Part shown: positions 796 through 38,777 of the stretch, piece by piece
How positions within the stretch are numbered: position 1 is the first letter of the stretch
Layout: each line of letters opens with the position of its first letter
Assembly (NCBI GenBank): GCA_964653745.1
Contig: CAZZHC010000002.1
Location: forward strand, 1-38,777
DNA length: 38,777 nt
DNA from: an uncultured Gammaproteobacteria bacterium
GTDB lineage: Bacteria > Patescibacteriota > Microgenomatia > Daviesbacterales > UBA10151
Direction of reading: 5' to 3'
The notes under the pieces: model-generated
What the model saw: the letters and a program-made list of their open reading frames with translations, nothing else
Told to the model about the DNA's origin: nothing
Databases searched by the model: none
Position numbers and translations under genes: made by a program

Positions 796-1104
796 ATGGC
801 CAAAGGTAAAATTAGAGTTAGATTAACAAGCTTTGATCATCGGGTACTGGATAATACTGTTGAGCAGCTTTTAGATACTGCTATCAGAACCGGTGCCAAA
901 ATTGTTGGACCTATCCCACTTCCTACCAAAACTACCAGATTTACTGTTCCCCGTTCCCCTCACACTGATAAAGATTCCCAAGAAGCTTTTGAACTTAAAA
1001 CACACAAAAGATTAATAGAAATTGTTGAACCAACTGATAAGACAATCGACAGTCTTATGCATCTCGAGCTACCAGCGGGAGTTAACATAGAGGTTAAAAT
1101 GTAA
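796..1104 (+). CDS. rpsJ: 30S ribosomal protein S10
   Basis: 102-aa [22 protein letters not shown]...[26 protein letters not shown]10 family, in the canonical position after tuf. Confidence 0.97.
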
Positions 1105-1126
1105 GTCGATTGTCTTGCGATAGTTC

Positions 1127-1158
1127 CACCGCTTCGCGGTGTATAACTATCTAAAAAC
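1127..1158 (+). repeat. GC-rich hairpin (caccgc-ttc-gcggtg) followed by CTAAAAAC; member of an island-specific repeat family
   Basis: Perfect 6-bp inverted repeat at 1127-1141, with ctaaaaac at 1151-1158. The architecture resembles the units at 1345-1376, 2830-2855 and 2915-2940. Confidence 0.5.
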
Positions 1159-1219
1159 AATTGATTCGCTGATGCATCTTGAACTCCCTGCAGGTGTAAA
1201 TATTGAAGTAAAGATGTGA
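1154..1219 (+). pseudogene. displaced, out-of-frame duplicate of the last 21 codons plus stop of rpsJ
   Basis: Reads [21 protein letters not shown], identical in amino acids to rpsJ codons at 1039-1104. 17 of the 19 codons that can vary synonymously differ, and the stop is tga versus taa. It lies in frame 2 whereas rpsJ is in frame 1, and no start codon or RBS was found. Confidence 0.85.
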
Positions 1220-1233
1220 CCCTCTTTTGCTAT

Positions 1234-1251
1234 TGATTTTTTAAAAAATCA
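1234..1251. repeat. perfect 18-nt AT-rich palindrome tgattttttaaaaaatca
   Basis: Exact inverted repeat (9+9 nt, no spacer) 15 nt after the relic rpsJ stop. It could be an operator, a recombination site or a weak hairpin. Confidence 0.6.
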
Positions 1252-1344
1252 GTTGTAAAATAGTTTTTACTGTGTTTAGGATTAGACCAAAAATAAGATA
1301 TATAAAACAATATGCCTTTTTAGAAGGCAAAGAAGCTTAACAAG

Positions 1345-1376
1345 ACCCGCGCAAGCGGGTTTTTAAATGGCTAAAC
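1345..1376 (+). terminator. terminator-like hairpin (acccgc-GCAA-gcgggt + TTTT) followed by GGCTAAAC motif
   Basis: 6-bp GC stem with a GNRA loop and a T-run at 1345-1364, with ggctaaac at 1369-1376. It lies upstream of the Hsp70-like gene. Confidence 0.55.
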
Positions 1377-1406
1377 GGTATACAATAGAAAGGAAATGAT
1401 CACAAG

Positions 1407-2816
1407 ATGAAATTCGGTTTAGACTTTGGAACAACAAATAGTTCGATTTCTATAAATCAGGGTGGAAAAACTCGAGTAATTGAAGTAGATCAGGCTGCGC
1501 TGGATCAGAGGGTGATTCGCTCGATGCTTTACTTTCTAAGAAGAGAAATACTTTATGGGTCAAACGTGACTCCACAGCAAATACAATCTCAAACCTTTAA
1601 GGTTGGTGACATTCAATATCAAGGGAGGCAAGAACTTCTAATTGGTCAAGAAGCAATAGAATCTTATCTAAATGATAATAAACAAAGAAAACCTGGTATA
1701 AAGAGAACTATTTATACGGGTCGTTTTCGGAGAATGAAAGATAATCCTGATCAGCCCCGGACTGACCCAGTTCCTGAATATTATGAAGAAGTTGATTATG
1801 GAACGGGTAGGTTAATTCAAGCATTAAAATCCAGTTTGAGAACCTCTTTTAAGGGGACAACAATTTTTGGGCAATTTTATTCAGTTGAAGAATTAATCGG
1901 CATGTTTGTAAAAAAAATTAAGGAAAAAGCAGAAGCTGAAAATGGTTTAGCTATAGAAGAGATTACCATTGGTAGGCCAGTCCATTTTTCTTTAGACCCG
2001 GAGGTAGATCAAAAAGCTCAAAACCGTTTGGCAGTGGCAATGAAAACAGCCGGTTTTAAAAAACTTAAATTTGAATATGAACCTGTAGCAGCAGCTAAAC
2101 AATTTTTGGCCGCATCTAATCAAAAACAAACCATTTTTGTGTTTGATTTTGGGGGTGGAACTTTGGATACAGCCATAGTTAGATTTGGAGAAAAAATAGA
2201 AGTTTTGGCAACTGATGGGGTGTATATTGGTGGAGATTTACTAAATGCTGATATTATGCAACACACGCTTTGGGATTATTTTGGCGCTTCTTCTACTTGG
2301 GGTGAACAAAAGCTGCAAATGCCCAGTTATATCTATTCAGCTTTAAATTCTTGGTACAGCATTCCCTCACTAAATGGCCCTGATGTTATGAATTTCCTAG
2401 AGCGGGCGGGTTATAAAAACTCTAATCCCAAGGCTTTAGAAAGATTAATTTATCTTATTAAAACTAATGTTGGTTTTGAAATTTATGAGGCCATTGAAAA
2501 AGCTAAAAAACAGTTATCAGAAGAAAAAGAAGCACGGATTATTTATGATGATGGTCCAATTAACCTGGATTTGAAAATTACCAGAGATGAATTTGAAAAA
2601 ATAATTGCTCCCAGAGTTGAAGAAATAAAAGAAGTAGTGTTAAAAACATTGCAAATGGCAAAATTGGAAGGGAGTCAAATTGATATGGTAGTTAGAACTG
2701 GCGGGTCATCACTAATCCCAGTTTTTGAACACATTTTGGAAGATATTTTTGGCAAAGAAAAAATCACTTTATTTGAAACTTTTACCAGTATTGCCGCAGG
2801 ATTATCCCTAAGTTAA
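1407..2816 (+). CDS. Hsp70/actin-fold ATPase, nucleotide-binding-domain-only (YegD-like), no recognisable substrate-binding domain
   Basis: 469-aa ORF. It contains the N-terminal phosphate-1 motif MKFGLDFGTTNSSISI, the phosphate-2 motif FVFDFGGGTLDTAIV and the adenosine motif VVRTGGSSLIPVF, all typical of the DnaK/Hsp70 NBD. The length is too short for an SBD and lid. Confidence 0.85.
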   Translation: MKFGLDFGTTNSSISINQGGKTRVIEVDQAALDQRVIRSMLYFLRREILYGSNVTPQQIQSQTFKVGDIQYQGRQELLIGQEAIESYLNDNKQRKPGIKRTIYTGRFRRMKDNPDQPRTDPVPEYYEEVDYGTGRLIQALKSSLRTSFKGTTIFGQFYSVEELIGMFVKKIKEKAEAENGLAIEEITIGRPVHFSLDPEVDQKAQNRLAVAMKTAGFKKLKFEYEPVAAAKQFLAASNQKQTIFVFDFGGGTLDTAIVRFGEKIEVLATDGVYIGGDLLNADIMQHTLWDYFGASSTWGEQKLQMPSYIYSALNSWYSIPSLNGPDVMNFLERAGYKNSNPKALERLIYLIKTNVGFEIYEAIEKAKKQLSEEKEARIIYDDGPINLDLKITRDEFEKIIAPRVEEIKEVVLKTLQMAKLEGSQIDMVVRTGGSSLIPVFEHILEDIFGKEKITLFETFTSIAAGLSLS

Positions 2817-2829
2817 TTTGATTTGTGGG

Positions 2830-2855
2830 TCCACCTCGAAGGTGGAAGGCTAAAC
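2830..2855 (+). repeat. hairpin (tccacc-tcgaa-ggtgga) + AGGCTAAAC repeat unit R1
   Basis: Inverted repeat at 2830-2846. The 3' arm plus tail, ggtggaaggctaaac, is nearly identical to ggtggcaggctaaaaac at 2924-2940. Confidence 0.6.
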
Positions 2856-2864
2856 TTTTGTTTA

Positions 2865-2907
2865 TGCCCGCAGGTGTCCCGCTTCGCCCGCGAAGCGGGG
2901 CGAGCAA
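2865..2907 (+). repeat. long GC-rich hairpin (core cccgcttcg-cccg-cgaagcggg)
   Basis: 9-bp perfect stem at 2878-2899, extendable by tgcccgc/gcgagca with one mismatch. It shares ccgcttcgc with the hairpin at 1127-1141. Confidence 0.6.
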
Positions 2908-2914
2908 CCTAATT

Positions 2915-2940
2915 CACCCCTGGGGTGGCAGGCTAAAAAC
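2915..2940 (+). repeat. hairpin (caccc-ctg-gggtg) + CAGGCTAAAAAC repeat unit R2
   Basis: Direct-repeat partner of R1. Together they bracket the central hairpin within the 180-nt gap between the two island genes. Confidence 0.6.
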
Positions 2941-2996
2941 TGGGTATATTGTAATTTAAGTATGGTTTTGGTTTAATAGTCAATTAAGAAACTATT

Positions 2997-3344
2997 ATGC
3001 AAGAAAGACATGGTTTATCGGTTAGAGCGGTTTGTTTTAGTGAAATTGGTGGTGCTTTTAATCCTGCAACAGATGAGACAGATCCACAAAACAGCCCTGG
3101 TTTAGATTTATTATGGGCAGGAGCAAGACCCGGTCAGACTTTATCAGAAAAAGTAGAGGCAGTTTTAAATCGTTTGCCCTGGCGGCAAACAGTGATATTT
3201 GAACTAAGGCATGGTTTAGGTTCAGATGAACAAGAACATACACTGCGAGAGATAGCAGACCTTGTAAAATTACCCCTACCAAAGGTGTATAGGACTTTAA
3301 CTTTAGCACACCGGGCACTCTATAACTATTGCAACCCTAAATAG
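2997..3344 (+). CDS. stand-alone sigma-70 region 4-like HTH protein (possible sigma-factor fragment or regulator)
   Basis: 115-aa ORF. The C-terminal 70 aa (LSEKVEAVLNRLPWRQTVIFELRHGLGSDEQEHTLREIADLVKLPLPKVYRTLTLAHRAL) follow the region 4.1/4.2 pattern L..L..RE..V..LR.GL......TL.EI......S...V.....AL. No region 2 or 3 is present upstream. Confidence 0.6.
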   Translation: MQERHGLSVRAVCFSEIGGAFNPATDETDPQNSPGLDLLWAGARPGQTLSEKVEAVLNRLPWRQTVIFELRHGLGSDEQEHTLREIADLVKLPLPKVYRTLTLAHRALYNYCNPK

Positions 3345-3351
3345 CCTCTAC

Positions 3352-3381
3352 TTGCAATTTAGCCTCAACTCATGCTACAAT
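3352..3381 (+). promoter_or_regulatory. sigma-70-type promoter for the rplC-onward operon
   Basis: -35 ttgcaa (3352-3357), an 18-nt spacer and an extended -10 tgctacaat (3373-3381). It is located just after the island genes. Confidence 0.6.
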
Positions 3382-3533
3382 CCTTATAAGCCATGCAGAT
3401 GGTTTTTGAGACGTAAAAAAGAAAATAAATTTCAGTAAATCGCGTCCTTCGTCAGGACGTTGATACTGACTCAGGATAAACTGAGAGGTATCAGCGACTT
3501 GTCCTGAGGAACAAAGTGACGAAGGAAATACTG
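3382..3533 (+). promoter_or_regulatory. structured 5' leader RNA upstream of rplC with mutually exclusive pairings
   Basis: Hairpin H1 at 3443-3459 (cgtcct/aggacg) and hairpin H2 at 3462-3492 (gatac..ctcag/ctgag..gtatc). The segment tccttcgtca (3445-3454) can instead pair perfectly with tgacgaagga (3517-3526). Confidence 0.5.
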
Positions 3534-3566
3534 GAGTGAGTTCGTCTAGGCGACTCGCTCTTTTTT
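3534..3566 (+). terminator. intrinsic terminator/attenuator immediately upstream of rplC
   Basis: 8-bp stem gagtgagt/actcgctc (one G-U pair) at 3534-3560 followed by TTTTTT at 3561-3566. It ends 13 nt before the rplC ATG. Confidence 0.6.
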
Positions 3567-25118: not shown

Positions 25119-25194
25119 AATTTTCTTTTGACAGCTCCATCTTAAGGTTTGAGTGTGAGAGATGAGTTATGGGTTGGTAAGAAGAAGATAAAAT

Positions 25195-25203
25195 GCTACT
25201 ATA
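25195..25203 (+). promoter_or_regulatory. extended -10-like element tgctactat, 6 nt before the ppsA ATG (possible leaderless mRNA)
   Basis: TGnTACTAT at 25195-25203, with the ATG at 25209. No SD-like sequence fits in between. Confidence 0.35.
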
Positions 25204-25208
25204 AAATC

Positions 25209-27254
25209 ATGGATCAAAAATTTGTACTTCATCTTGACCAAGTAGGCATTGACGATGTAGGAGAAGTGGGAGGTAAAAATGCTTCTTTGGGAGAAATGAT
25301 TCAACATCTTGAACCCAAAGGGGTGAGTATTCCGGGTGGGTATGCGGTGACAGCTACTGCATACCGCCATTTTTTAACCAGTACAGGGTTGGTTGATTTT
25401 ATCAAAAAAACTTTAGAGGATCTAAACTCCAGTAATTTAACAAATCTTGCGTCACAGGCTGAAAAAATTAGGGAACAGATCAAAAAAACTGATTTTCCTA
25501 AAGAGTTGAAAGAGGCAATTGTTAAAGCTCATCGAGAGGCTGAACAAAAATACGGTAAAATGGGAGATTTTGCAGTTCGTTCTTCAGCCACAGCCGAGGA
25601 TTTACCTGATGCTTCTTTTGCCGGTGAACATGAAACTTTTTTAAATATTTCCGGGTCGGATAATATTTTAAAAGCAGTCCGTGCTTCTATGGCCTCACTT
25701 TTTACCGACCGCGCTATTTCTTACCGAGTGGATAAAGGATTTGACCATTTGAAAATTGCCCTCTCTGTTGGGGTGCAAAAAATGGTCAGATCCGACAAAG
25801 CCTCATCGGGCGTGATGTTTACACTGGATACTGAAACCGGTTTTCCTAATGTGGTGGTAATTCAGGGTTGTTGGGGTTTAGGAGAACTGATTGTTCAGGG
25901 GGAGGTAACTCCGGATGAATTCTTGGTTTTTAAAAAGACTTTGGATAAATTTAAGCCAATTATTAGTAAAAACCTGGGAGTTAAAAATCAAAAAATGGTT
26001 TATTCTGACAAAACTCCTACCAAAATTGTAGCCACTAGTCAAAAAGAAAGGGAAAACCTGGTTTTATCAGATGAAGAAGTTTTAAAATTAGCCAAGTGGG
26101 CAGTAGAGGTAGAAGATCACTACTGCCAAAAAAGAGGAAAATGGACTCCAATGGATTTAGAGTGGGCCAAAGATGGTCAAACCGGCAAGCTTTTTCTCGT
26201 TCAGGCCAGACCGGAAACAGTCCAATCCACGCGTGATTTTTCCAAAATTAAAGAGTATATCAGACAAGAAGATGGAAAAGAAATTGTCAAAGGGGCCTCG
26301 GTTGGTAATAAGATAGCCTCTGGACTGGCCCGAGTCATCTTGAATCCTGCGGATATAAAATTGTTTAGACAGGGAGAAATTTTGGTAACAGAAATGACTG
26401 ATCCGGACTGGGAACCAATTATGAAAATTGCAGCAGCAATTGTAACTAACAAAGGTGGTCGAACTTCTCACGCTGCCATTGTCTCCCGAGAGCTGGGAAT
26501 TCCTGCAGTGGTGGGGACTGAAGAGGCCACTGATAGAATTAAAACTGGTGAGAAAATCACTGTTGATTGTAGTGGTGCAGAAGGGAAAGTATTATCAGGA
26601 TTTTTGAAATTTAAAGTTGAAGAACATGATGTGGCAAAACTTCAAAAACCCAAAACTCATGTGATGTTAAATATTGCTACTCCGGACACTGCTTTTGAAA
26701 AATCGTTTTTACCCAACGAGGGAGTAGGGTTGGCCAGAGAAGAATTTATTATTGCTTCTGATATTGGTATTCATCCCAGGGCAGTTTTGGCTTATCCAAA
26801 ATTACCAGAAGCTTTAAAGAAAAAAATTGATCAAAGAACTTTTGGTTACTCTGATAAAGTGCAGTTTTATGTTGAGAAATTATCTTATGGTATTGCCAAA
26901 GTGGCAGCGGCTTTTTACCCAAAGAAAGTGATTGTCAGGTTTTCTGATTTTAAAACTAATGAGTATCGAAGTTTAATTGGGGGAGATTTATATGAGCCAG
27001 AAGAAGCAAATCCAATGATTGGCTGGCGAGGTGCCTCTCGTTATTATCATCCTGATTTTGCTGATGCTTTTGTTTTAGAGCTTAAGGCTATTAAAAAAGT
27101 CAGAGAGGAAATGGGGCTTGGTAACGTAGCAGTGATGATTCCAATGTGTAGAACTACCGAAGAAGGGAAAAAAGTTTTAACAATTATGGAAAAACATGGT
27201 TTAATAAGAGATCCCTCGACCCATTCGACTAACGCTCAGGGTCATACTGAGTAA
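25209..27254 (+). CDS. ppsA: phosphoenolpyruvate synthase, N-terminal 681 codons up to an in-frame TAA
   Basis: MDQKFVLHLDQVGIDDVGEVGGKNASLGEMI is the PpsA N-terminus, the phospho-His region is TNKGGRTSHAAIVSRELGIPAVVG, and a PEP-utilizer TIM barrel begins. The ORF stops at TAA 27252-27254 inside a 57-nt insert. Confidence 0.9.
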   Translation: MDQKFVLHLDQVGIDDVGEVGGKNASLGEMIQHLEPKGVSIPGGYAVTATAYRHFLTSTGLVDFIKKTLEDLNSSNLTNLASQAEKIREQIKKTDFPKELKEAIVKAHREAEQKYGKMGDFAVRSSATAEDLPDASFAGEHETFLNISGSDNILKAVRASMASLFTDRAISYRVDKGFDHLKIALSVGVQKMVRSDKASSGVMFTLDTETGFPNVVVIQGCWGLGELIVQGEVTPDEFLVFKKTLDKFKPIISKNLGVKNQKMVYSDKTPTKIVATSQKERENLVLSDEEVLKLAKWAVEVEDHYCQKRGKWTPMDLEWAKDGQTGKLFLVQARPETVQSTRDFSKIKEYIRQEDGKEIVKGASVGNKIASGLARVILNPADIKLFRQGEILVTEMTDPDWEPIMKIAAAIVTNKGGRTSHAAIVSRELGIPAVVGTEEATDRIKTGEKITVDCSGAEGKVLSGFLKFKVEEHDVAKLQKPKTHVMLNIATPDTAFEKSFLPNEGVGLAREEFIIASDIGIHPRAVLAYPKLPEALKKKIDQRTFGYSDKVQFYVEKLSYGIAKVAAAFYPKKVIVRFSDFKTNEYRSLIGGDLYEPEEANPMIGWRGASRYYHPDFADAFVLELKAIKKVREEMGLGNVAVMIPMCRTTEEGKKVLTIMEKHGLIRDPSTHSTNAQGHTE

Positions 27255-27275
27255 AGCCGAAGTACGACAAGCTCG
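27219..27275 (+). other. 57-nt in-frame insertion within ppsA carrying a hairpin and a TAA stop
   Basis: Bounded by TCG at 27216-27218 and 27273-27275. Removing it restores [17 protein letters not shown], which is colinear with my recollection of E. coli PpsA LKRGENGLKIIMMCEIP. The hairpin ctcag-ggtcata-ctgag lies at 27235-27251 and abuts the TAA. Confidence 0.75.
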
Positions 27276-27290
27276 GGACTAAAGGTTTAT

Positions 27291-27650
27291 GTGATGTGTG
27301 AAATCCCGGCCAATATTATTTTGGCAGATGAATTTTTAGAAATTTTTGATGGGATGAGTATTGGCAGTAATGACCTGACCCAGTTGACTCTTGGGATTGA
27401 CCGTGACGGCAATGAAACAATCAGGGGTATTAGCAATGAGAAAGATGAGGCAGTGAAAACTTTGATTAGTGAAGTGATCAAAAAATGCAAAGCCAGGGGA
27501 AAATATATCGGTATTTGTGGACAAGCTCCATCAGATTATCCAGATTTTGCCCAGTTTTTAGTTAAAGAGGGGATTGAAAGTATTTCCTTAAACCCTGATA
27601 GTGTGATAAAAACTACTTTGGCAATCCTTGAGGCGGAGAAGAGTCGGTGA
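27291..27650 (+). CDS. ppsA: phosphoenolpyruvate synthase, C-terminal portion (same frame as the N-terminal part)
   Basis: [41 protein letters not shown]...GICGQAPSD contains the catalytic Cys loop and the end of the barrel. Homology already begins at GLKVY (27276). Confidence 0.9.
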
Positions 27651-36464: not shown

Positions 36465-36970
36465 TGGAAAAAAAGATTTTAATAGTCATCATTGTTTTTG
36501 TAGTTTTAGCTGCCCTGGTTTATCTACAACTTTCTAATAATAAAGAAAATCCTAATACACAGCTACTTGGCCAAGTTAATTTCCCCACCGCCTCTTCTCA
36601 AACTTCAACTTCTACCACCACTACTCCTAGTCCTACTGTAACTGTTAATCAATTGCAAATGGCAGATATTAAAATTGGTACCGGTTCGGCAGTTAAGTCG
36701 GGAGACACCGTTAAAATTAATTACGCGGGAACTTTAACAAATGGTCAAAAATTTGATAGCTCTTATGATCGGGGACAACCTTTTGAAACACAAATTGGGG
36801 TAGGAAAAGTTATCAAAGGTTGGGATTTAGGAGTTATAGGGATGAAGGTAGGAGGAAAAAGAAGGTTAATTATTCCACCAGATTTGGGTTATGGGGAAAA
36901 AGGTGTTGGGGGAGTTATCCCTCCCAATGCCACCCTGGTTTTTGACCTGGAACTTTTAGAAATTAAATAG
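36464..36970 (+). CDS. FKBP-type peptidyl-prolyl isomerase with N-terminal membrane anchor and S/T-rich linker
   Basis: YAGTLTNGQKFDSSYDRGQPFETQIGVGKVIKGWDLGVIGMKVGGKRRLIIPPDLGYG...LVFDLELLEI. Confidence 0.92.
   Translation: MEKKILIVIIVFVVLAALVYLQLSNNKENPNTQLLGQVNFPTASSQTSTSTTTTPSPTVTVNQLQMADIKIGTGSAVKSGDTVKINYAGTLTNGQKFDSSYDRGQPFETQIGVGKVIKGWDLGVIGMKVGGKRRLIIPPDLGYGEKGVGGVIPPNATLVFDLELLEIK
36942..36970 (+). repeat. direct repeat copy 1 (functional 3' end of the FKBP gene)
   Basis: ttgacctggaacttttagaaattaaatag. 27 of 29 nt are identical to 38456-38484. Confidence 0.9.
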
Positions 36971-36991
36971 ACCTAATCTCTATTTGACGTG

Positions 36992-37000
36992 TGCTATACT
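36992..37000 (+). promoter_or_regulatory. extended -10-like element tgctatact, 7 nt before the ATG at 37007 (possible leaderless mRNA)
   Basis: TGnTATACT inside the insert. ttgacg lies at 36984-36989, which is too close to serve as a -35. Confidence 0.4.
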
Positions 37001-37006
37001 ACTTTT

Positions 37007-38386
37007 ATGTCCGAGGGTTCCTTTTCACCAGAATTACCTAAAGAACAAAAAGCAGCAATCCGTGAATTTACCAAATCTACTCCAGAAGGTAGACAAGCTA
37101 GGAATGATGCTGCCGAAGATATCCTTGGTCAAAGAAGTGAAGCCAGACAATCGCGGCAAAAACAAAGAGATTATTTAATAGATAGACAAACAGATAACCA
37201 ACAAAACCGGGCAGATGCAGAAGCAAAAAAGGTAGAGGCAGAAAATCGGCTTTTATACTTAAAAGCTGAATTGGTTGACAGGTCTACATCCTGGCTTGCG
37301 CGGGCACGCGCATTGGTTAGTAGGAGTTTTAGAGAAGAAGCTTGGAAGCTACAAAAACAACTACCTGAACTTGAATACGGCCTGGAGAGACAAAATATGT
37401 CTCTGAAGATACAACGGGAAACTTATCAACGAGAGTTGTTTGTTTTAGAAAAGAAATTTAATGAACTTTCTCGGTGGCATAAAACTCATCCACTTGTTGG
37501 TAAAAAAACTTTACAAAAGTTTTATGGGCAACAATGGGGCTTACTTAAAGATCAACGACAATCTTTAGAAGAACAAAGACAAAAGGCAGAACTTGAACGT
37601 TACAAACAAGAGCATGGCACTGTAGCAGAAGTTACAGATAGATATCAAGGTTATATTGTCCACGGTATAACTCCAGGATTTGGTGGTGCTAATAACATGG
37701 TGTTAGAAGATACGGCTAGCTGGGCAGATAAATTGATGGTTATTGTGGCTGAACGACCACCTCTTTCTGCCTCATTTGTTAAAAAAGGCAATGGTCCCCA
37801 GCACTTATGGAGCCCAATAGGTGTTGTGATTCAAAGCGGTATTATAGCTGAAGCAGAGGGTGGAGATTTAGGATCATTGGCGGTGGACAAAAAGACTAAA
37901 AAAGGGAAGGACCCGAAAAATATTATGAGGTATCAACAAAGTTTAGAAAGAGCCGTAGCAAAAAATAATGCTCATATATCTTCGGGTTGGCATAATGAAG
38001 TAATTTTAGAATTTGGACTCAAAGTAGGTGGAGTCTATATTAATTTAGATCAAGGTGGAGATACTATTTTTGACAATAAGGGAATGAGATTTGAATCCGG
38101 AAACCTCAAGCGTGCTGCAGGTGGTACTGGTGAAATTATAAACCGGCTTGATAGAATTGAATATGAAGATATTTATGAGACTGCAAGTATTGTCGGTTTA
38201 CCTGTTGTTGTTTTGAAAAATGGCATTTTGTATGAAAGTTCATATGACCCAACTCGAGGGTTAACTGTGGGGAGAGAATTATCCCCTAGAGAAATCACCG
38301 CCAGCCCAACAGAGATTCCAAATGAAAATATACCAGGGGTACAAAAAAGAGCAAACTCTGTTTTAAAGACTGTAGCAGTTTATTAA
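37007..38386 (+). CDS. hypothetical protein: ~210-aa coiled-coil N-terminal half plus ~245-aa unrecognised globular C-terminal domain
   Basis: Uninterrupted ORF of 459 aa from ATG 37007 (track start GTG 36989). The N-terminal half is rich in R, Q, E and K with heptad-like periodicity. The C-terminal half (GYIVHGITPGFGGANNM...GGDLGS...GGTGEI) matches no family I recognise. Confidence 0.65.
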   Translation: MSEGSFSPELPKEQKAAIREFTKSTPEGRQARNDAAEDILGQRSEARQSRQKQRDYLIDRQTDNQQNRADAEAKKVEAENRLLYLKAELVDRSTSWLARARALVSRSFREEAWKLQKQLPELEYGLERQNMSLKIQRETYQRELFVLEKKFNELSRWHKTHPLVGKKTLQKFYGQQWGLLKDQRQSLEEQRQKAELERYKQEHGTVAEVTDRYQGYIVHGITPGFGGANNMVLEDTASWADKLMVIVAERPPLSASFVKKGNGPQHLWSPIGVVIQSGIIAEAEGGDLGSLAVDKKTKKGKDPKNIMRYQQSLERAVAKNNAHISSGWHNEVILEFGLKVGGVYINLDQGGDTIFDNKGMRFESGNLKRAAGGTGEIINRLDRIEYEDIYETASIVGLPVVVLKNGILYESSYDPTRGLTVGRELSPREITASPTEIPNENIPGVQKRANSVLKTVAVY

Positions 38387-38455
38387 AAATAAGTCCATGT
38401 CAACTTTTAAATCTAATAATCTTATTATCATACCGAGCTTGCCTAAGTGCCAGAA

Positions 38456-38484
38456 TTGACCTGGAACTTTTAAAAATTAAATAA
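38456..38484 (+). repeat. direct repeat copy 2 (relic FKBP 3' end)
   Basis: ttgacctggaacttttaaaaattaaataa would read DLELLKIK* against DLELLEIK* in the gene. Weaker similarity extends about 12 nt upstream (cctaagtgcca vs cccaatgcca). Confidence 0.9.
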
Positions 38485-38529
38485 AGGCTGTAATTAAACG
38501 TGTTATTACCAGGACTTGAATAAATCGTT

Positions 38530-38558
38530 AGTTCGGTTTATAATAGATAAACCGTACT
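38530..38558. promoter_or_regulatory. imperfect palindrome enclosing a TATAAT box upstream of fic
   Basis: cggtttat-aatag-ataaaccg (8-bp stem, 38534-38554), extendable with one mismatch. tataat lies at 38539-38544, 30 nt before ATG 38574. Confidence 0.4.
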
Positions 38559-38573
38559 TAGCTATTTTTAAGT

Positions 38574-38777
38574 ATGGGCAAAAATATGAGTAAAATAGGA
38601 CAATATATAAAACAGCCCAAGAATTATCGGGCTTTTATACCTACTCATTTTCCGGATCATAATTTAATTATTTGGGACGATGATTTACATGTACTTCTTT
38701 CAGAGGCAGATATGGCAATCGGTAAATTGAATGCTATTGACGAATTGGTCCCCGACGTTGATTTTTTTATCCTCATG
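38574..38777 (+). CDS. Fic-family protein, N-terminal (Fic_N) part; 3' end outside window
   Basis: Manual translation gives MGKNMSKIGQYIKQPKNYRAFIPTHFPDHNLIIWDDDLHVLLSEADMAIGKLNAIDELVPDVDFFILM. It fits the Fic_N pattern (Y.AFIP..LP....L..LL.EA...LG.L......P....F). The start could also be ATG 38586. Confidence 0.75.
   Translation, partial: MGKNMSKIGQYIKQPKNYRAFIPTHFPDHNLIIWDDDLHVLLSEADMAIGKLNAIDELVPDVDFFILM

Follow-up and report, generated by a model that had tools for sequence, protein, structure and literature searches.

In the window analysed here, the whole 38,777-bp NCBI contig of an uncultured, low-GC, groundwater-type bacterium resembling the Candidate Phyla Radiation (CPR), the 3' end of a gene for an FKBP-type peptidyl-prolyl isomerase is present twice, on both sides of a 1,484-bp segment with exactly one open reading frame (ORF), here called the cargo gene. 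We tentatively explain this repeat, with a probability of about 0.45, as the scar of homology-facilitated illegitimate recombination after uptake of DNA from a related lineage. This reading is favoured because a precedent exists at rpsJ in the same contig, because the composition of the cargo gene is host-like, because neither recombination machinery nor conserved cassette ends were found, and because most homologous copies of the cargo gene have no flanking repeats.

The sequence TTGACCTGGAACTTTTA[G/A]AAATTAAATA is found at 36942-36969 and 38456-38483, with 27 of 28 nucleotides identical and only these two copies in the window. If the final G/A position of the stop codon and the A behind it are counted in, the match grows to 28 of 30 (36942-36971 against 38456-38485). 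No other direct repeat of the whole window is as strong, the runner-up reaching at most 91% over 22 nt, and two matches never arose in 100 dinucleotide shuffles. A flank-to-flank repeat test at the insert yielded p<0.003. A scan that compared the terminal 30 nt of 311 ORFs, taken from the window and from 13 further loci, mostly CPR-like, with the 6 kb downstream of each had the FKBP tail as its sole match, with 0 in the controls. The duplicated 29-bp tail described in the first-pass annotation is therefore real and slightly longer than proposed; the weaker similarity reported about 12 nt further upstream is noise, as local alignment with 1,000 shuffles detects nothing significant beyond the repeat, either upstream (p=0.87) or downstream (p=0.61).

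The longest exact run common to both copies is 17 nt, and of the two differences one is non-synonymous and the other lies within the stop codon. Copy 1 encodes ...FDLELLEIK*, the last nine codons of FKBP and the stop. Copy 2 reads IDLELLKIK*, has no in-frame start codon upstream and lies within no ORF of the list. On the right, the repeat ends one base past the stop codon, where the similarity of the tail region ends; on the left it breaks off suddenly, which is what one would expect of an illegitimate join. No dyad symmetry is clear by eye in the 30 nt, and an inverted-repeat search found none involving them.

Chance similarity, a slippage-type local duplication or an assembly chimera would be a highly improbable origin of this pattern. 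Short two-copy repeats are common in AT-rich sequence such as this, but the shuffles, the flank test and the tail scan speak against coincidence, and the match coincides exactly with a gene end and its stop codon. Logan contigs assembled at k=31 served as an independent check: L001 (SRR12113383) spans FKBP, the insert and both repeat copies, all identical to the window, and L094 (SRR12113384) carries the insert too. An assembly artefact is very unlikely because the two copies differ, which excludes a collapse of k-mers.

The insert consists of a 35-nt leader, the 459-aa cargo ORF and a 69-nt trailer, and its ends read CCTAATCT... on the left and ...GTGCCAGAA on the right (Table 1). That it is a single-gene insert with its own extended -10 element, as first annotated, is in agreement with the ORF list and with the cargo homologues L088, L089 and L095, in which a TG(C/G)TATACT box likewise lies 6-7 nt before the ATG. 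This shared position supports the ATG at 37007 as the start codon, which alignment with homologues also favours over a GTG at 36989, and the location of the predicted box suggests a leaderless or near-leaderless mRNA. With a GC content of 0.39, a third-position GC content (GC3) of 0.25 and a codon usage correlation of r=0.82, the cargo gene is indistinguishable from host genes, and none of these measures marks the insert as foreign. A donor would therefore be of similar composition, as a related lineage would be.

In the recombination we propose, about 1.5 kb comprising an FKBP tail, the promoter, the accessory gene and the 69-nt trailer would have entered the resident FKBP gene at a point 30 nt short of the stop codon. 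The incoming DNA would have brought its own last nine FKBP codons and stop, so that FKBP stayed intact with copy 1 as its new working end, and the resident tail would have become copy 2, shifted 1.5 kb downstream and non-coding. Two exchanges would be involved, a crossover within homologous sequence of FKBP or upstream of it and an illegitimate join at 38455/38456, with a donor from a related CPR lineage in which the cargo gene already stood just after FKBP. The mirror version would be equally possible, with copy 2 and the Fic-like gene to its right as the incoming, right-anchored fragment. Such scars may lie at gene 3' ends because an event that damaged FKBP or rpsJ would not survive. The pathway, its direction and the uptake by transformation are what we infer from the observed repeat; natural competence has been demonstrated in cultured CPR bacteria (Saccharibacteria; PMC10633639), and illegitimate recombination has been given as the cause of 3' gene ends that lie displaced next to newly inserted modules (PMC5361080). 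From the initial interpretation of the locus we retain that the repeat marks both junctions and that the incoming copy serves as the working FKBP end, and we abandon the recombinase cargo and the transposon duplication.

The second duplicated gene tail that had been noted in this contig, at rpsJ, is also real. Live and remnant tail agree in all 21 encoded aa and the stop, and 20 of the 66 nt differ, all of them synonymously and including an AGT/TCG serine switch. The two tails must have evolved apart as working gene ends of two lineages and been joined recently, because a dead remnant evolving in place would gain non-synonymous changes. The 49-nt spacer between them holds a GC-rich hairpin, CCACCGC-TTC-GCGGTG, and to their right a non-ribosomal block of ~2.3 kb (1220-3566) separates rpsJ from rplC in the S10 operon, with a gene for an Hsp70/MreB-like ATPase (1407-2816) and one for a protein resembling sigma-70 region 4 (2997-3344). 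As both tails lie left of this insert, the layout is not that of attL-element-attR. It would fit a fragment running from an rpsJ tail through the insert into rplC and beyond, with a homology anchor on the right and an illegitimate join on the left. The suggestion of a recurrent mechanism of insertion at gene ends thus stands as far as the contig holds two cases; rpsJ points to recombination between lineages rather than to a dedicated insertion machine. Comparable tail duplications were not seen in 12 other CPR-like loci. Further GC-rich hairpins surround the genes of the S10-operon block, at about 1340-1360, 2834-2935 and 3440-3560.

Table 1. Features of the window around the two duplicated gene tails.
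Feature	Position	Strand	Basis or remark
rpsJ live tail (1039-1104), 49-nt spacer, remnant tail (1154-1219)	1039..1219	+	Sequence comparison
FKBP-type peptidyl-prolyl isomerase gene, 168 aa	36464..36970	+	ORF list; Pfam PF00254 FKBP_C, E 2.2e-37
Direct repeat copy 1 (TTGACCTGGAACTTTTAGAAATTAAATAGA)	36942..36971	+	Working FKBP gene end, left insert junction
Insert left end with extended -10 box TGcTATACT (36992-37000)	36972..37006	+	Sequence; box 6 nt before ATG
Cargo gene, 459 aa	37007..38386	+	ORF list; no Pfam, NCBIfam, PHROG or PADLOC match
Insert right end, non-coding, 69 nt	38387..38455	+	No terminator-like hairpin; unlike 3' flanks of homologues
Direct repeat copy 2 (TTGACCTGGAACTTTTAAAAATTAAATAAA)	38456..38485	+	Displaced non-coding FKBP tail IDLELLKIK*, right insert junction
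Right neighbour: sigma-70-like promoter and start of Fic-like gene, cut by contig end	38516..38777	+	Promoter scan; Fic_N weak, E 0.064

The FKBP protein is composed of an N-terminal membrane anchor, a Thr/Ser-rich linker and the FKBP_C domain. Its best relatives in metagenome-assembled genomes belong to Levybacteria, Roizmanbacteria and other Patescibacteria, at about 50-56% identity. The closest ortholog, P0033 (75% amino-acid identity, locus L087), also ends in ...FDLELLEIK*; the SDR-FKBP gene order is kept there and the cargo gene is absent within 172 nt after FKBP. As an empty-site comparison this locus is distant, the sequence downstream of its FKBP gene being unrelated to the window. 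No relative closer than 75% was found in GTDB genomes, JGI metagenomes and a set of 5.8 billion protein clusters, no allele ending in ...LLKIK was found among 15 billion proteins, and the FKBP protein cluster has a single member. A synteny search across 80 FKBP loci showed no conserved neighbours. In a search for strain variants, contigs with an identical copy of the neighbouring ferredoxin gene end before reaching FKBP, and an empty site with FKBP directly joined to the sequence after 38484 was found in none of the genome, metagenome and protein collections.

Close homologues of the cargo gene occupy at least five other genomic contexts. At L088 (61% identity to the window cargo) the gene begins 21 nt after the ftsK stop codon; at L095 (72% in the C-terminal domain) a frameshifted copy follows a GIY-YIG gene of 97 aa and is itself followed by a ybaB-like gene; at L005 (55%) it is divergent from small ORFs; and at L093 (54%) it precedes a convergent rsmI-like gene. 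At L002, L090 and L006 (44-51%) it appears to form a two-gene operon with a conserved 115-aa partner. This partner is missing from the window and from the other solo copies, a clade whose members directly follow unrelated genes (FKBP, ftsK, GIY-YIG). One further homologue, L089 (56% identity; Logan SRR22388088), is a 1,778-bp contig that begins and ends with the same 30 nt (k-1 for k=31). Joined at this overlap, it makes a 1,748-bp cycle of one gene and 293 nt of non-coding sequence, with no ORF over the junction; in a k=31 graph, such a cycle stands either for a free circle or for an insertion with an exact repeat of 30 nt on its two sides.

The copies share no end sequences. The sequences that flank L089 and L005 bear no relation to the FKBP tail, L002, L006, L090 and L095 have no flanking repeat, and pairwise alignments of the 3' flanks of five homologues were all non-significant. 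A putative right-end motif, TAARTGCCNGA, was present only in the window's own copies. At L095, the GIY-YIG gene and the frameshifted cargo gene are bracketed by inverted GC-rich hairpin elements of ~32-36 nt (37-72 and 1825-1856; GTCATTCTGGAAGCC...GGCTGATAGAATCT), which are absent from the window. The partner gene of the distant homologues lies 3-4 nt upstream of the cargo gene (L002 9650-9997; L090 100-450; also L003, L004 and L006) and encodes a helical protein of ~115 aa with the conserved sequence MD..Y.K..EL.ILKIIEEKLRNG.MDA.RAKAIARMVLDK.HPPLTLEQIH... The arrangement suggests a two-gene operon, in which the small protein is possibly a partner or immunity protein.

The variety of contexts and the L089 cycle count in favour of a different origin of the window repeat, less probable and yet a serious alternative. 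A circular, non-autonomous cassette of ~1.5 kb carrying a 30-nt mimic of the FKBP end would have integrated in an att- or Campbell-type manner, by means of an integrase acting in trans or of a host recombinase; copy 1 would be attL and copy 2 attR, or, in a variant, the insert would be the eroded remnant of a larger integrative element. The layout is exactly attL-element-attR, with the element-borne tail restoring the gene, and a direct repeat of 18/22 (p about 0.02) brackets the copy at L005. Integration of this kind predicts an empty-site junction ...CCCTGGTTTTTGACCTGGAACTTTTA[A/G]AAATTAAATA[A/G]AGGCTGTAATT and a circle junction ...CTAAGTGCCAGAATTGACCTGGAACTTTTA[G/A]AAATTAAATAGACCTAATCTC. 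Positions 1-1528 of L094 correspond to 36940-38467 of the window, so that this contig starts 2 nt before copy 1 and stops 12 nt into copy 2, a coincidence of roughly p 0.003-0.02. However, the ends at 36940 and 38467 mismatch the breaks predicted for k=31 (36929/38485 or 36942/38472) and were rejected as a signal of an empty site or a circle, and the contig breaks in the low-coverage runs SRR12113383 and SRR12113384 look coverage-driven. Also against such a cassette, neither the insert nor the contig contains an integrase, excisionase or replication gene, the fold of the cargo protein is not that of a recombinase, and the repeat lacks clear dyad symmetry, its exact sequence (searched as a 26-nt core) being absent from 2.9 million viral contigs. 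The related cassettes share neither conserved ends nor an att-like sequence, the flanks of L089 and L005 do not resemble the FKBP tail, several other copies are without flanking repeats, the ...LLKIK allele of an empty site is lacking, and the rpsJ case cannot be an att layout. Hence, of the attL/attR signature proposed at first, the direct repeats of a gene tail around an insert persist, and an integrase, an empty site, a confirmed circle and a second copy were not found. A wider form of this explanation, in which integrase-less single-gene CPR cassettes, each a promoter with a gene for a coiled-coil/ADP-ribosyltransferase (ART)-like protein, would form circles of ~1.5-1.75 kb that insert at 3' ends of unrelated host genes and make or use a ~30-bp duplication, with the window repeat, L089 and L005 as three footprints of one hitherto undescribed way of mobilisation, is decidedly doubtful.

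Several points weigh against illegitimate recombination at FKBP. The process has been described mainly as displacing or deleting recipient DNA, and the donor genome it requires here, with the cargo gene already placed after FKBP, was not found in the collections searched. With 30 nt and 2 differences, the FKBP tails are too short for a synonymous-only signature of the rpsJ type. The L089 cycle with its 30-nt overlap and the weak repeat at L005 fit a cassette-type element better, and the position of the solo clade after FKBP, ftsK and GIY-YIG genes could reflect targeted insertion.

In the insert and among the contig ORFs scanned, which comprise ribosomal, glycolytic and other housekeeping genes and a few without a Pfam match, no integrase or transposase was identified. 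What had been noted for the insert thus extends to these ORFs of the 38.8-kb contig. No circular excised form of the window locus was confirmed in the assemblies searched, and further copies of the insert or the repeat, which the first-pass annotation had considered, were not found: no collection searched yielded a second copy of the cargo gene, and the repeat is confined to its two positions in the window. A phage or plasmid origin was rejected, as IMG/VR, the INPHARED phages and the PLSDB plasmids hold no DNA or protein relatives, and so was a hidden RNA gene or tRNA target, as no tRNA or Rfam element was found. An integron gene cassette was likewise discarded: no inverted repeat or hairpin occurs in 38387-38485, so that an attC-like palindrome is missing, and the contig encodes no integrase. 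A dif/Xer module was set aside as well, the 30-mer having neither dyad symmetry nor an ATAA-N6-TTAT core when its sequence is compared with the dif consensus.

Modelled with AlphaFold (AF2), the cargo protein consists of an N-terminal coiled coil of ~200 aa, formed by long helices, and a C-terminal alpha/beta domain of ~260 aa. Eight homologues were found among the 5.8 billion protein clusters, and a profile search of 1.84 billion representatives raised the family to 315 members. The protein matches no family in Pfam, NCBIfam, PHROGs or PADLOC, ten longer family members contain no significant Pfam domain, and no hidden Markov model link to PDB sequences or Pfam was obtained. The C-terminal domain alone, modelled from 65 sequences, reached a predicted local distance difference test (pLDDT) score of 94.5 and a predicted template modelling score (pTM) of 0.92. 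In Foldseek searches of PDB and BFVD, the modelled cargo protein matched no recombinase, transposase or nuclease fold. The earlier idea that the cargo might be an unrecognised recombinase is not sustained by this model, and the sequence and structure collections offered nothing in favour of a recombinase, transposase or nuclease. Because no such fold was found and the only match was a weak one to CteC, the model indicates that the cargo protein is not the agent of its own insertion.

The CteC chains matched in PDB (E 0.02-0.06, probability 0.57-0.72, template modelling (TM) score 0.30-0.40; best single match E 0.02, probability 0.72, TM 0.34-0.40) belong to the CteC-type mono-ADP-ribosyltransferase toxins (PDB 8htf, 8ux2), for which an R-S-E triad has been described (PMC10810742). 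In the cargo domain (residues 195-459), positions H25, S62 and N136-E137 of the domain numbering (H219, S256 and E331 in the full-length protein) vary hardly or not at all among 18-65 family members, and from their H...S...NE order, which is that of the R-S-E triad, we infer a corresponding triad by sequence position. The likeness would thus comprise the best structural match and the order of these residues; the predicted cargo differs by the weakness of the match, the lack of a sequence-level link, a His in place of Arg and the long N-terminal coiled coil. The domain is possibly ADP-ribosyltransferase-like, a predicted activity only, and the cargo may be an accessory, toxin-like protein.

Some integrative elements, such as phage 21 and e14 in icd and the Staphylococcus aureus pathogenicity islands (SaPIs), target the 3' ends of protein-coding or tRNA genes and carry a replacement end in attP. 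The FKBP locus shares with them the gene 3' end repeated on both sides and the preservation of the gene by an element-borne copy, but differs in having no integrase or excisionase, a length of 1.5 kb with one gene, and an att-like sequence that is not common to related cassettes. IMEX elements and the dif modules of Acinetobacter are Xer-dependent and integrase-less and use 28-bp dif-like sites made of two 11-nt, partly palindromic arms and a 6-nt spacer. These are likewise small modules without their own recombinase and with sites of ~28-30 bp; here, in contrast, the 30-mer has no XerC/XerD arms or dif likeness and lies inside coding sequence.

A superficial resemblance exists to the IS1202 group, elements of ~1.5 kb with one ORF of ~450 aa and 16-28-bp duplications (PMC10132070), given the 1,484 bp, the single 459-aa ORF filling the element and the 30-bp flanking duplication. 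Transposition of this kind, with the cargo as transposase and the repeat as a long target-site duplication, is essentially refuted. The insert termini (36971/38455), for which a comparison for inverted repeats had been proposed, show neither these, let alone the 24-26-bp ones of the group, nor TGT...ACA ends, and no ends are common to the homologous cassettes, so that a large transposon target-site duplication is not upheld. NCBIfam and Pfam contain no matching transposase model, and the domain model finds no RNase H/DDE (TnsB-like) fold in PDB, the protein being predicted as a coiled coil joined to an ART-like domain. The genome's cluster has one copy of the gene, distant homologues occur in the two-gene operon and are free of flanking repeats, and 2 of the 30 positions are not the same in both copies of the duplication.

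Closer parallels are found in transformation scars of Acinetobacter, S. pneumoniae and P. stutzeri, the T6SS (type VI secretion system) effector-immunity arrays of Vibrio cholerae and the Rhs/contact-dependent inhibition (CDI) orphan modules (PMC5361080). Common to these and the FKBP locus are foreign DNA beside a conserved anchor, a working end supplied by the incoming DNA with the old 3' end as a downstream remnant, the absence of a dedicated recombinase, and an accessory, possibly toxin-like cargo. The anchor differs, being the housekeeping gene FKBP (and rpsJ) instead of a polymorphic toxin gene, and the remnant is just 30 nt. The donor, the homologous crossover and any microhomology at the join were not observed at FKBP. 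The FKBP locus belongs to a known and fairly ordinary kind of event, a gene-end duplication bordering acquired DNA, here in a poorly studied phylum and together with an uncharacterised cargo family and its apparently circular homologue.

Very little is known of how the tiny CPR genomes gain accessory genes. The window offers two clean cases in one contig in which foreign or sister-lineage DNA appears to have been spliced in at an essential or conserved gene's end with the gene left intact. The analysis also defines an uncharacterised CPR protein family of 315 representative clusters with a confidently modelled new domain, maybe an ADP-ribosyltransferase; this family shifts from one genomic context to another and in one case assembles as a circle of 1.75 kb. 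Should the cassette explanation be true, the locus would represent a new kind of minimal mobile element; if it is false, the locus would still be a useful, datable recombination marker in an uncultured lineage.

To the right of copy 2, a near-consensus promoter (TTGAAT, 17 nt, TATAAT; 38516-38544) overlaps a palindrome with 8-bp arms, CGGTTTAT-N5-ATAAACCG (38534-38554), and precedes the Fic-like gene, which starts at an ATG at 38574 or 38586. Fic genes often occur in regions that are mobile or variable, and three repeat copies result when elements integrate in tandem at a single att site. Copy 2 might on these grounds be the left attachment site of a larger island from Fic onward, with the cargo as an older or satellite insertion in tandem occupancy, and both the window contig and L001 stop within the Fic-like gene, 145-290 nt to the right of copy 2. 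This arrangement is nevertheless very unlikely: a search with the Fic N-terminus gave one relative only (L091), in an unrelated context, nothing past 38777 was recovered, no third repeat copy or integrase was seen, and the breaks appear to follow coverage.

Two minor observations concern the data and another gene of the contig. The Nextera mosaic-end adapter AGATGTGTATAAGAGACAG opens the Logan contig L004 (1-19) from run SRR12113384; adapters in this run were untrimmed before assembly, and contig ends there can reflect single reads. A gene for a phosphoenolpyruvate (PEP)-utilising enzyme (PPDK/PEP synthase-like; 25149-27254 and 27291-27650) is split by a GC-rich, partly palindromic insertion of ~65 nt (window 27213-27290), which is read in frame after ...GLIRD and brings a stop codon; this insertion in a glycolytic gene looks like a miniature insertion element.

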